Shown piece by piece: positions 6,469 through 13,054 of a stretch of 20,317 bases of DNA (the first letter of the stretch is position 1; every line of letters begins with the position of its first letter). Location of the stretch: UHGV virus genome UHGV-1756682; one strand, written 5' to 3'. The notes below the pieces were generated by a model, which made no database searches, was not told the origin of the DNA, and saw only the letters and a list, made by a program, of their open reading frames with translations. The translations under genes and the position numbers were made by a program. The stretch comes from a virus.

Positions 6469-6630
6469 ATGACAAAACGTCGTAAGAAATACCAGGAAAA
6501 AGAAGAGATTCGACACCCTGATTCACCTGAGGGATTAGTGGTAGCCGCAGCAAATAACAGGGCGTTCGCAGAGCGCCTTGTTGGTGTTTACAGACTAGCC
6601 AAAGCAGGAGTGAAACATGGGCGTCGTTAA
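6469..6630 (+). CDS. small basic hypothetical protein (53 aa)
   Basis: Hand-translated [59 protein letters not shown] 6469 with AGGAG 5 nt upstream; overlaps the O start by 14 nt. Not in track. Confidence 0.35.
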   Translation: MTKRRKKYQEKEEIRHPDSPEGLVVAAANNRAFAERLVGVYRLAKAGVKHGRR

Positions 6631-7447
6631 GTTAGCTGATTACAGGCCTCAACTGGAGGTCGTGGAGCATCGCGTGGCAGAACTCGAAGATGGCTACACT
6701 CGGACTGCAAACACACTGTTAGAAGCCGCCATGCTTTCTGGACTTACTCTACATCAGTTACTGATTGTTATGGCTGTGTGGCGCAAGACATACGGTTACA
6801 ACAAAAAAATAGATTGGATCGGAAACGAACAGTTCGCTGAACTCACTGGCATGGCGCCAACCAAATGCTCTACCGCCAAAAACGAGCTTATCAGAATGGG
6901 AGTTCTCATTCAGGTGGGGCGTCAAGTTGGTATGAATACAAACATTTCCGAGTGGAAAACGAAAGTTAACGGATTCGGTAAAACATTTACCAATTCGGTA
7001 AAACAAACCTTCACCAAATCGGTAAAAAGCAATTTACCGAATCAGTCAAACACAAAAGACAATATACAAAAGACAATAAATACAAATACCCCCTTACCCC
7101 CTAACGGGGGCGGCGATGGGCAGGTTAAACCTGAACGTCGCAAGGCAGAACGAATCGACTACGAATCCTTCCTGAACGCTTACAACACCGAAGTCGGTGA
7201 CAGACTGCCACACGCTGTTGCGGTCAACGAGAAACGCAAACGCCGCCTGAAGAAAATCATCCCGCAACTGAAAACGCCAAACGTGGACGGTTTCAGAGCG
7301 TATGTCAGGGCGTTTGTACATCAGGCCAAGCCGTTTTACTTCGGAGACAACGATACGGGCTGGACGGCTGATTTTGATTACCTGCTGAGAGAAGACTCGT
7401 TAACGGGAGTTCGGGAAGGGAAGTTTGCAGACAGGGGGATTGCATGA
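6617..7447 (+). CDS. O: replication initiator, lambda O-like (origin-binding)
   Basis: N-terminal region ([16 protein letters not shown]...[46 protein letters not shown]) parallels lambda O. Iterons lie inside the gene. ATG 6617 with AGGAG 6 nt upstream. Confidence 0.85.
6971..7110. repeat. replication origin: iteron array, AT-rich tract and GC palindrome inside the O gene
   Basis: ATTCGGTAAAAC at 6973-6984 and 6993-7004, AATCGGTAAAAA at 7017-7028, inverted TTTACCGAAT at 7033-7042. Followed by an AT-rich tract 7048-7089 with the direct repeat ACAAAAGACAATA twice, then CCCCC-TAAC-GGGGG at 7097-7110. Confidence 0.6.
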
Positions 7448-9517: not shown

Positions 9518-9690
9518 GGCGACAGCGACGAAGTTTCACCGACATCATCTGCGAAAACTGCAAATACCTTCCAACGAAACGCTCCAGAAATAAACGCAAG
9601 CCAATCCCAAAAGAATCTGACGTAGAAACCTTCAACTACACGGCTCACCTGTGGGATATCCGGTGGCTAAGACATCGTGCGAGGAAATGA
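9514..9690 (+). CDS. ninE: NinE-like small basic protein (58 aa)
   Basis: Hand-translated [64 protein letters not shown] 9514 overlaps the ninB stop; AGGAGG 5 nt upstream. Matches my recollection of lambda NinE. Not in track (<60 aa). Confidence 0.6.
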
Positions 9691-9692
9691 CG

Positions 9693-10637
9693 ATGACTGC
9701 GTATTACAACGAAATAGATCCGTATGCAGCGCAATGGCTGCGTAACTTAATTGACGCTGGAGAAATTGCCCCCGGTTATGTAGATGAAAGGAGTATTGAA
9801 GATGTCACACCAGGTGATTTGCGAGGATTTACCCAGCACCACTTTTTTGCAGGAATCGGAGTTTGGAGCTATGCACTTAGAAAAGCAGGATGGCCAGACA
9901 ACAAGAGTATCTGGACAGGAAGTTGCCCATGCCAACCTTTCAGCTCGGCAGGCAAAGGAAAAGGGGTTGATGACGAGCGGCACTTATGGCCGGCATTCTT
10001 CTGGCTTATTGAAAAATGCAATCCTGGCATCGTTATTGGCGAACAGGTTGCAAGCGCAGACGGCCTCGCTTGGCTCGACCTTGTACAAACTGACTTGGAA
10101 GGTGCGAACTACACCTCTGCAGGTACCGATATTTGCGCTGCGGGCTTCGGTTCTCCGCACATTAGGCAGCGATTGTATTGGGTGGCCTACTCCAACGACA
10201 AATATCAACTTTCAGCCAGAGACGCGCAGGGGAATTCAGAACCTATCTGGATGCGTGAGACTAGCGGGATGGCAAACTCCTTTAGCGAACGATGCAACAG
10301 GTTCAACGCATTGCTACAGCGGAAAAGACAAGAGCGGAACCCCAAGAATCTGCTTGAAACTTCCCGGGACGGTGAAGCTATGTACCCATTACCGGTTAAC
10401 GGCTTCTGGAGAGATGCAGACTGGCTTTACTGTAGAGATGAAAAATATCGTCCAGTTAGACCCGGCTCATTCCCGATGGTTAATGGCATTGCCAAAAGCT
10501 TGGGACGAGGCAAGTCCACACTGGGAAGAATGGCAAAGCGCAATCAAGATCAGCGAATTATTGGATATGGAAACGCAATCAATGCAGAAGTAGCAACGGC
10601 ATTCGTGAAAGTTTGTATGGAGGTTGTTAATGCTTAG
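9693..10637 (+). CDS. orphan DNA cytosine-5 methyltransferase
   Basis: Frame-0 translation carries C5-MTase motifs: I-like FFAGIGVWS, IV GSCPCQPFSSAG, VI-like GEQV, VIII HIRQRLYW, X GYGNAINAEVATAF. Start ATG 9693 (GAGGA 7 nt upstream); ATG 9687 overlapping the ninE stop is an alternative. No adjacent restriction endonuclease gene. Confidence 0.75.
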   Translation: MTAYYNEIDPYAAQWLRNLIDAGEIAPGYVDERSIEDVTPGDLRGFTQHHFFAGIGVWSYALRKAGWPDNKSIWTGSCPCQPFSSAGKGKGVDDERHLWPAFFWLIEKCNPGIVIGEQVASADGLAWLDLVQTDLEGANYTSAGTDICAAGFGSPHIRQRLYWVAYSNDKYQLSARDAQGNSEPIWMRETSGMANSFSERCNRFNALLQRKRQERNPKNLLETSRDGEAMYPLPVNGFWRDADWLYCRDEKYRPVRPGSFPMVNGIAKSLGRGKSTLGRMAKRNQDQRIIGYGNAINAEVATAFVKVCMEVVNA

Positions 10638-10806
10638 CCCATCCCAATCCATTCAATACCAGAAAGAAAGCGTCGAGCGGGCTTTAACGTGCGCTAACTG
10701 CGGTCAGAAGCTGCATGTGCTGGAAGTTCACGTGTGTGAGCACTGCTGCGCAGAACTGATGAGCGATCCGAATAGCTCAATGTACGAGGAAGAAGACGAT
10801 GAGTGA
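10630..10806 (+). CDS. ninF: NinF-like protein (58 aa, Cys-rich)
   Basis: MLSPSQSIQYQKESVERALTCANCGQKLHVLEVHVCEHCCAELMSD matches my recollection of lambda NinF. ATG 10630 with GGAGG 6 nt upstream. Confidence 0.7.
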   Translation: MLSPSQSIQYQKESVERALTCANCGQKLHVLEVHVCEHCCAELMSDPNSSMYEEEDDE

Positions 10807-11068
10807 TTTCTCTGAGCTTATTTCCTTCAAAAAAGACAGAGAAGAAATGCAGACTGAATCTGTCTATTACGTTCAACACCGGAATAAACGCTCGGTGCTT
10901 GATCAGGAGCTGGTTATTACCGGAGACCTGGCATTCAGAACATATAAGGCCAGAATGGAAATGAAGGATTTCCCTAAATGTGGTTCTGAAAGAGAAGCCG
11001 CGTTAAAGCTGGCAGAGTGGATGCAGAGAATGGCTGCTGCAATTGAGAATTACTGGAGCGAACCATAA
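10799..11068 (+). CDS. hypothetical protein (89 aa)
   Basis: Track ORF; start overlaps the ninF stop and its stop overlaps the ninG ATG (TAATG). Confidence 0.5.
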
Positions 11069-11679
11069 TGGCTAAACCAGCGCGAAGACGATGTAAAAAC
11101 GATGAATGTCGGGAATGGTTTCACCCTGCATTCGCTAATCAGTGGTGGTGCTCTCCAGAGTGTGGAACAAAGATAGCACTCGAACGACGAAGCAAACAGC
11201 GCAAAAAAGCGGAAAAAGCAGCAGAGAAGAAACGACGACGAGAGGAGCAGAAACAGAAAGATAAACTGAAGATTCGAAAACTCGCCTTAAAGCCCCGCAG
11301 TTACTGGATTAAACAAGCCCAACAAGCCGTAAACGCCTTCATCAGAGAAAGAGACCGCGACTTACCATGTATCTCGTGCGGAACGCTCACGTCTGCTCAG
11401 TGGGATGCCGGACATTACCGGACAACTGCTGCGGCACCTCAACTCCGATTTGATGAACGCAATATTCACAAGCAATGCGTGGTGTGCAACCAGCACAAAA
11501 GCGGAAATCTCGTTCCGTATCGCGTCGAACTGATTAGCCGCATCGGGCAGGAAGCAGTAGACGAAATCGAATCAAACCATAACCGCCATCGCTGGACTGT
11601 CGAAGAGTGCAAGGCGATCAAGGAAGAGTACCAACAGAAACTTAAAAAACTGCGAAATAGCAGAAGTGAGGCTGCATGA
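11068..11679 (+). CDS. ninG: NinG/Rap-like recombination protein
   Basis: 203-aa ORF with Cys clusters ([34 protein letters not shown]) and basic linker, as in lambda NinG. Confidence 0.85.
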
Positions 11680-12545
11680 CGTTCTCAGTAAAAACCATTC
11701 CAGACATGCTCGTTGAAGCATATGGAAACCAGACAGAAGTAGCACGCAGACTGAAATGTAGTCGCGTTACGGTCAGAAAATACGTTGATGATAATACGTT
11801 GATGATAAAGACGGGAAAATGCACGCCATCGTCAACGACGTTCTCATGGTTCATCGCGGATGGAGTGAAAGAGATGCGCTATTACGAAAAAATTGATGGC
11901 AGCAAATACCGAAATATTTGGGTAGTTGGCGATCTGCACGGATGCTACACGAACCTGATGAAAAAACTGGAGACGATAGGATTCGACACCAAAAAAGACC
12001 TGCTTATCTCGGTTGGCGATTTGGCTGATCGTGGTGCAGAGAACGTTGAATGCCTGGAATTAATCACATTCCCCTGGTTCAAAGCTGTACGTGGAAACCA
12101 TGAGCACATGATGATTGATGGCTTATCAGAGCGTGGAAACGTCAATCACTGGCTGCTTAATGGCGGTGGCTGGTTCTTTAATCTCGATTACGACAAAGAA
12201 ATTCTGGCTAAAGCTCTTGCCCATAAAGCAGATGAACTTCCGTTAATCATCGAGCTGGTGAGCAAAGATAAAAAATATGTCATTTGCCACGCCGATTATC
12301 CTTGTAACGAATACGAGTTTGGAAAGCCAGTTGATCATCAGCAGGTAATCTGGAACCGCGAACGACTCAGCAACTCACAAGACGGGATCGTGAAAGAAAT
12401 CAAAGGCGCGGACACGTTCATCTTTGGTCATACGCCAGCAGTTAAACCACTCAAATTTGCCAACCAGATGTATATCGATACCGGCGCAGTGTTCTGCGGA
12501 AACCTCACATTGATTCAGGTACAGGGAGAAGGCGCGTGGGCATAA
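11676..12545 (+). CDS. ninI: NinH-NinI fusion ORF; C-terminal 224 aa is a NinI-type Ser/Thr protein phosphatase
   Basis: N-terminal 37 aa match lambda NinH; from [24 protein letters not shown]...GNHEHMM the sequence is a lambda-PPase-like metallophosphatase. The two are joined in one frame by a 14-bp tandem duplication at 11781-11808. NinI keeps its own ATG 11874 with GGAG 8 nt upstream. Confidence 0.75.
11781..11808 (+). repeat. perfect 14-bp tandem duplication (TACGTTGATGATAA x2) inside ninH
   Basis: Read directly: 11781-11794 and 11795-11808 are identical. Confidence 0.9.
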
Positions 12546-13054
12546 GAGAACTAAACCTCACCAAAGAACAGCATGAGTGGCTGAATGGCTGGCTTGAACT
12601 GTGGGGCGCATGGGTTTATTCAGGTCGTCTGGAAAAGCGCATGAGCAGCGTAATAGCGAAGTTCATGGAGAGCGTAGAGCCGGGAAGAGTTATGACAAGG
12701 CCAATGTGTAATGATGATGATGGAATGTTGATTTCTCAGGTCGTCGATTCCGTCATGTACATTGACAAGAAAGCCTTTGGCATCCTCCTCAGCTACTACG
12801 CTCATGGTTCATCTAAGCGAGCAATTGCATCCTACTATCACGCGACTGCAAAGCCACGCAAGATGTGTGGACGTGGTGGCGAGGGATGGAGAAAACCTTC
12901 ACTGGCAACCTGTAGAAACGAAATTGACGACATCCTGAAAGCGTCGTTATTTGTTTTGTACCAGCCAATGCAAAATGCTTTCAAAATGCGTAAACGTGTT
13001 GAGAAAGTTAAGCATGTTGCTGTTAAAAGCCTTGACATGCAATTATCCATTTAG
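12536..13054 (+). CDS. Q: late antiterminator Q (QuuD/phage 82-like type)
   Basis: Position immediately before PR' and the lysis genes. Shares ELWGAW..., CNDDDGM and SYY features with E. coli QuuD as I recall it. GTG start 12536 overlaps the ninI end. Confidence 0.75.

Follow-up and report, generated by a model that had tools for sequence, protein, structure and literature searches.

A 14-bp tandem duplication truncates NinH and opens its reading frame into the NinI phosphatase gene in an Escherichia coli prophage lineage

The window, by which we mean the whole 20,317-base stretch of DNA that was analysed, spans a lambdoid prophage from its early-right to its late region. Gene calls on the near-identical locus L001 give the order cI, cro, cII, O, a DnaB-type helicase gene, ninB, ninE, a C5 methylase gene, ninF, ninG, ninH-ninI, Q, the lysis genes and terminase. 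The ninG stop overlaps the ninH start (ATGA), and the start of Q overlaps the ninI stop by 10 nt (GTGGGCATAA); the features around ninH are collected in Table 1. Elsewhere in the window, the gene for an O-type replication initiator (6617-7447) contains short tandem repeats at 6981-7102 (periods 24, 14, 7 and 8), which resemble, as at the lambda ori, a set of origin iterons with an AT-rich repeat next to it. Between ninE and ninF, where lambda has no such gene, lies a C5 cytosine DNA methyltransferase gene (9651-10637; Pfam DNA_methylase), whose product is 314 aa long with the ATG at 9693 as start and 328 aa with the GTG at 9651, and an 89-aa ORF with no assigned function occupies 10799-11068, between ninF and ninG.

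Within ninH, the 14-bp unit TACGTTGATGATAA occurs twice in perfect tandem, and Tandem Repeats Finder reports the repeat as 11779-11808 (period 14, 2.1 copies, 100% matches). The two extra bases in this interval are an AA microhomology, and AA also ends the 14-bp unit. A script found no other perfect tandem duplication with a period of 10-40 across the window, for which the analytic chance expectation is 8e-5 at period 14 and 0.027 over periods 10-40; 30 dinucleotide shuffles produced one such duplication in total. The original prediction placed a perfect 14-bp tandem duplication at 11781-11808 and held that its length carries the NinH frame into that of NinI, giving a single 289-aa ORF at 11676-12545; the repeat is confirmed by the sequence, the script and Tandem Repeats Finder, and the ORF by the ORF list. 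Its further proposals, that a single copy would end NinH near the NinI start as in lambda and that NinI retains its own ATG at 11874 with a GGAG Shine-Dalgarno sequence, also hold: one copy gives a 68-aa NinH with its stop 20 nt past the NinI ATG, and both initiation signals are present in the sequence. The former ninH stop, TGA at 11894-11896, is out of frame in the two-copy allele. The description of the event as fusing NinH to NinI stands only in part, since the ORF is indeed continuous but just the first 39 residues of NinH are joined, through 27 junk residues, and for this reason the two-copy allele is a truncating ninH frameshift rather than the joining of two intact proteins.

Table 1. 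Coordinates of the features at and around the ninH-ninI locus, as positions in the window.
Feature	Position	Strand	Basis or remark
ninG, 203 aa, Rap-type junction endonuclease	11068..11679	+	Pfam NinG E 2.5e-91; ORF list
Fused ORF, ATG start, 289 aa, 32.8 kDa	11676..12545	+	NinH(1-39) + 27 frameshifted residues + NinI(1-223)
ninH codons 1-39, helix-turn-helix part	11676..11792	+	38/39 identical to lambda NinH (G31V)
Copy 1 of TACGTTGATGATAA	11781..11794	+	sequence, Tandem Repeats Finder, script
Fusion codons 40-66	11793..11873	+	ninH C-terminal DNA in NinI frame; junk linker, 27 residues
Copy 2 of the 14-bp unit	11795..11808	+	insertion vs lambda, L004, L005, L008, L010
Displaced coding for NinH residues 40-68 and TGA stop	11807..11896	+	now out of frame
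NinI ribosome-binding site GGAG 11862-11865, 8-nt spacer, ATG 11874-11876	11862..11876	+	now internal to fused ORF
ninI, lambda-type PPP-family Ser/Thr phosphatase, 223 aa, 25.4 kDa	11874..12545	+	PDB 1g5b, Pfam Metallophos
Q-type antiterminator, 172 aa, GTG start	12536..13054	+	Pfam Phage_antitermQ E 1.1e-25

To assess the direction of the change, we compared the locus with its relatives. Aligned with lambda and four other loci, the window differs by a clean insertion of 14 bp and by no other indel; the insertion is also present in the independent assemblies L001 and L003 and absent from lambda and from the complete E. coli genomes of strains M15 and SW07096, and either of the two copies may be the newer one. 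Lambda NinH (43040-43246, 68 aa) and NinI (43224-43889) overlap by 23 nt. All 30 phage records among the matches listed align 856 bases to the 870-base query. With a 120-bp probe, every full-length match carries the 14-bp gap, as read from the 80-90% identity band of the matches, both among 50,697 phage records (41/41) and among 5,426 complete E. coli genomes (408/408). The NinH family keeps a frame of 64-68 aa with a conserved C-terminal block. Because lambda and the 41 phage and 408 E. coli matches are all single-copy and the NinH family keeps its frame, the sequence comparison identifies one copy as the ancestral state and two copies as the derived one. None of the relatives encodes the 289-aa protein without the repeat, and single-copy alleles were found, which agrees with the original prediction.

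One relative is the sister prophage at locus L008, which is nearly identical to the window and single-copy; its ninH lacks the 14 bp, is otherwise the same base for base, and specifies a NinH of the normal 68 aa. Besides the 14 bp, 10 SNPs in 4.5 kb separate L008 from the window, of which six lie together at the 3' end of Q, and past Q the two diverge (97.4%). Judged by these 10 other sites and by this divergence, L008 is a close relative and not a simple revertant. The exact NinG protein was looked up and occurs on 25 contigs, of which 20 carry the duplication, four have one copy (the L008 type) and one has a different mutation (L010), and the L010 type is present in two samples. We also considered the G31V substitution of the window as a sign of ninH decay and rejected it: that exact V31 NinH (P0139) occurs on 621 contigs, and the family varies at position 31, where G, V, C, N, A and D occur naturally.

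The two-copy allele is well represented in public assemblies, although exact searches for the 28-bp repeat found no match in the contig collections of species-representative genomes, viruses and metagenomes. By exact-protein look-up outside those three collections, the 289-aa product is present on 45 contigs from NCBI, Logan and ENA, and the exact 223-aa NinI of the window on 34 NCBI-annotated contigs, where the one such locus read (L003) has the duplication. The six duplication-bearing loci read (L001, L002, L003, L007, L009 and L011), a sample of the roughly 80 contigs carrying either product, are all at least 99.98% identical to the window, from which they differ by one or two bases over 5.5-12.9 kb; the repeat occurs in GCA_046707425.1, GCA_017319385.1, GCA_958337785.1, GCA_038404345.1, ERR9845884 and SRR18428606. 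Since these loci come from different samples and are nearly identical to the window, their sequences point to a single recent origin of the allele and its inheritance with the prophage. The window itself has a private G at 9625, where L001, L003, L007, L008 and L010 have A, changing NinE residue 38 from K to E, and L002, L009 and L011 each have one mismatch to the window, presumably also at 9625.

This distribution also bears on whether the repeat might be a sequencing or assembly artefact, with a true sequence of one copy, as the absence of the allele from the 50,697 phage records, the 5,426 complete E. coli genomes and the three contig collections might suggest. Such an artefact is next to inconceivable, because the exact 289-aa product comes from three independent sources, because loci from different samples and assemblers have the repeat in common, and because reads are far longer than a feature of 28 bp, which makes assembly collapse or expansion impossible. 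The question of whether the repeat is real is thus answered by the many independent assemblies that carry it. Gene callers treat the locus differently: the NCBI annotation of L003 and L009 gives NinI alone, 223 aa from its own ATG, with no product between ninG and ninI, whereas other callers report the 289-aa ORF at the two-copy locus.

The N-terminal part of the chimera matches lambda NinH (UniProt P03771; PF06322), a Fis-like nucleoid-associated DNA-bending homodimer, in 38 of its first 39 residues, and ninH has the same placement between ninG and ninI in lambda, with its start overlapping the ninG stop. Unlike lambda NinH, the chimera has residues 40-68 replaced by out-of-frame sequence followed by the 223-aa phosphatase. 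The Pfam Phage_NinH profile reflects this difference, matching positions 1-40 of 60 with 88 bits in the chimera (residues 1-40) as against positions 1-60 with 147 bits in L008, so that the chimera gives only a partial match to the 60-position family PF06322. The contact residues of the Fis-like helix-turn-helix (N18, R30, T32, R34 and K35) are all present in chimera residues 1-39, while H45, H55 and R56 of the C-terminal hairpin are absent, everything after D39 having been replaced. In the family alignment H45, A46, N49, V51, L52, V54, H55 and G57 are nearly invariant, and the chimera has lost this whole 45-57 block. AF2 predicts wild-type NinH with a mean pLDDT of 85, as a strand at 5-6, three helices and a hairpin at 45-54 (pLDDT about 80-90). 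For the chimera, AF2 confidence is low over residues 1-67, with pLDDT <50 over 28-67, but the alignment there is about 3-4 sequences deep and on account of this shallowness we regard the predicted N-terminus as uninformative and give it little weight.

Published work on lambda NinH describes a Fis-like homodimer in which N-terminal residues about 6-37 form the helix-turn-helix and C-terminal residues are required for dimerisation (PMC7166090). Deletion of residues 44-68 leaves the protein insoluble and non-toxic, and neither R56A nor H55A/R56A binds DNA (PMC7166090). As residues 40-68, including the hairpin on which dimerisation, DNA binding and solubility depend, are gone from the chimera, NinH activity has probably been lost, by extrapolation from these lambda mutants. 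A precise ninH deletion in lambda results in small plaques and no more (PMC7166090).

The phosphatase part, by all sequence measures, is complete, with all catalytic motifs kept. Chimera residues 67-287 align ungapped with residues 1-221 of the lambda phosphatase chain (PDB 1g5b, E 3.4e-147), and Pfam Metallophos covers chimera residues 80-254. NinI contains the PPP-family motifs GDLHG, GDLADRG (V to A) and GNHE and belongs to that family; in fusion numbering, H88, D115, D118, R119, N141, H142, H205 and H252 show no variation among 44 homologues, and D86 almost none. The window protein thus matches the lambda enzyme (NinI / ORF221; 1G5B), a PPP-family Mn-dependent Ser/Thr/Tyr phosphatase, over its full length and shares GDLHG, GNHE and the metal-ligand histidines, and ninI keeps its own Shine-Dalgarno sequence and ATG, with Q overlapping its stop; unlike the lambda enzyme, it can carry an N-terminal extension of 66 residues. 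Since its GGAG and ATG are intact, free NinI of 25.4 kDa may be made alongside the 32.8-kDa chimera. We would expect no polar effect on Q, because there is no early stop and translation is continuous to the Q start.

Some further differences in NinI and Q may be recorded here. In the GDxVDRG motif, the A51 of the window (12024-12026) is the sole A among 44 cluster representatives, of which 24 have V and 19 have I, and NinI also has R70K (12081-12083) and Q78H (12105-12107). Relaxed selection on ninI after the fusion was considered and is unsupported: relative to L008 there is one non-synonymous difference (R70K) and one at a third position, and A51 is older than the duplication, because single-copy L008 also has it. 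The NinI of L010 has V51. The Q gene (12536-13054) is of the short 172-aa PF06530/DUF1133 type, unlike the Q of lambda, which has 207 aa. No similarity to lambda, M15 and SW07096 extends beyond 12535, the boundary of ninI and Q, and the lambda record carries an annotated recombination point at its own ninI/Q boundary (43884-43885); the boundary looks like a mosaic joint.

Other mutations have also joined the two frames. Upstream of the NinI ATG, the single-copy sequence has 35 codons without a stop in the NinI frame, and hence a net shift of -1 or +2 anywhere after about codon 27 of ninH results in a fusion. At L010 (3109-3963; GCA_000194475.2), which belongs to the same prophage family, the C of the NinI ATGCGC is deleted (equivalent to window 11877), giving an in-frame NinH(1-62)-NinI of 284 aa with NinH almost complete and the NinI start codon lost. 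In three further proteins (P0001, P0002 and P0003, of 284, 282 and 272 aa), one A has been lost in GGGAAAATG (equivalent to window 11815-11818), creating a common out-of-frame linker; these come from Logan assemblies, as singletons or a five-member cluster, and may be real mutants or homopolymer errors. The recurrence of fusions is explained by the geometry of the genes, with no need to invoke selection. Another ninH allele, encoding a 74-aa NinH homologue (P0159), repeats 10 residues (KEGKRHAIVN) once in tandem and in frame at this part of the gene, and from its sequence this stretch of ninH appears prone to slippage duplications. A literature search found no paper describing a NinH-NinI fusion.

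We propose that, in a lambdoid E. coli prophage with a P22/Sf6-like nin module, replication slippage (slipped-strand mispairing) between two AA dinucleotides 14 bp apart would have duplicated TACGTTGATGATAA in ninH. The net +2 shift after NinH codon 39 would bring ribosomes into the NinI frame, which is open, so that translation could reach the NinI stop and yield a 289-aa chimera that keeps the NinH helix-turn-helix and loses the hairpin of residues 40-68. NinI would then be made as an N-terminally extended chimera and probably also in free form from its own GGAG and ATG. The nin genes are silent in a repressed lambda prophage. They are also non-essential and dispensable for plaque formation (PMC10695390). 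An allele of genes that are both dispensable and silent in the lysogen would be near-neutral there and would be passed on clonally with the prophage. Taken together, we consider it very probable that the duplication is an ordinary slippage frameshift in which NinH has most likely been lost, near-neutral and clonally inherited, and that no new functional module has arisen. Among the loci and databases compared there was no sign of selection, spread or phase variation.

Selection, instead of clonal sampling, could in principle account for the occurrence of the allele on roughly 80 contigs, and it is this number, along with at least three other independent mutations that fuse NinH to NinI (the A loss in P0001-P0003, and L010) and the retention of the contacts N18, R30, T32, R34 and K35, that would speak for an adaptive fusion, in which the NinH helix-turn-helix anchors the phosphatase on DNA or the nucleoid, or for some other selected bifunctional protein. 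We nevertheless regard adaptive fusion as very unlikely, because recurrence is expected without selection where the NinI frame is open so far upstream, the other fusions are singletons or near-singletons, and the 14-bp allele occurs in one prophage background, at least 99.98% identical across loci; moreover, the linker is out-of-frame sequence and the dimerisation region on which DNA binding depends is lost (PMC7166090). The bolder version of this idea, that the overlapping layout, in which the NinI frame stays open over those 35 codons, repeatedly yields a helix-turn-helix-tethered phosphatase with a selectable activity by which the 14-bp allele has expanded, strikes us as very improbable; if true, the activity might be, for example, nucleoid-targeted dephosphorylation or an altered translational coupling to the Q antiterminator.

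Little probability, of the same small order, attaches to phase variation, in which the 14-bp unit would toggle between one and two copies, so that NinH would be switched on and off and the form of NinI would alter. The slippage that creates a perfect tandem duplication can also remove it, and one- and two-copy forms of nearly the same nin module do exist (L008 and the window), but the one-copy form, with its 10 other differences and its 97.4% identity downstream of Q, is a relative rather than a revertant. All six near-identical loci read, out of the roughly 80 contigs, have two copies and are otherwise almost unchanged, the nearest one-copy locus being the one with 10 other differences. No three-copy allele was seen, a unit of 2 x 14 nt is unlike the long tracts of 1-7 nt in known contingency loci, and ninH is not expressed in the repressed prophage, leaving no obvious target for switching. 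That the duplication acts on DNA or RNA instead of protein, by creating a promoter, terminator or binding site, is less credible still: the junction does make GATAAT, a 5/6 match to the -10 consensus, but it has no acceptable -35 or TG extension upstream, and a scan of 11500-12100 found neither a promoter-like site on the + strand nor any terminator-like site at or near the repeat. The ordinary frameshift, with NinH most likely lost, remains the reading that we prefer.

Both genes and the type of mutation are well known, and the allele is already in public assemblies. The duplication serves as a clonal marker for one prophage lineage of E. coli and carries little biological weight. It does provide a clean natural case of a microhomology-flanked tandem duplication that joins two overlapping genes, and it has value for annotation, given that callers disagree between a 289-aa 'NinH+Metallophos' protein and the 223-aa NinI without ninH given by NCBI; such chimeras should not be taken for a new domain architecture. 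Were the chimera active, it would represent a natural NinH truncation together with an N-terminally extended lambda phosphatase.

The allele may be compared with three known systems. In slipped-strand contingency loci, the copy number of a tandem repeat sets the reading frame; here, by comparison, a 14-nt unit is present in one or two copies, and the loci of the lineage that were read have no copy-number polymorphism. Programmed frameshift fusions in phages, such as lambda G/GT, extend an upstream ORF into an overlapping downstream frame and can give two products. The outcome at ninH-ninI is alike, but here the change is a mutation hard-wired in the DNA, with no slippery heptamer or stimulatory structure and absent from relatives: the 14-bp DNA insertion is missing from lambda, the 41 phages and the 408 E. 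coli genomes, and the fusion does not classify as a programmed ribosomal frameshift. A third parallel is the stf frameshift of laboratory lambda PaPa, in the account of Hendrix & Duda (1992) as relayed in PMC10695390, which is likewise a small indel in an accessory gene, clonal, that alters ORFs and leaves viability unaffected. The two differ in that the stf frameshift splits one gene into two ORFs, whereas the ninH duplication joins two overlapping genes.
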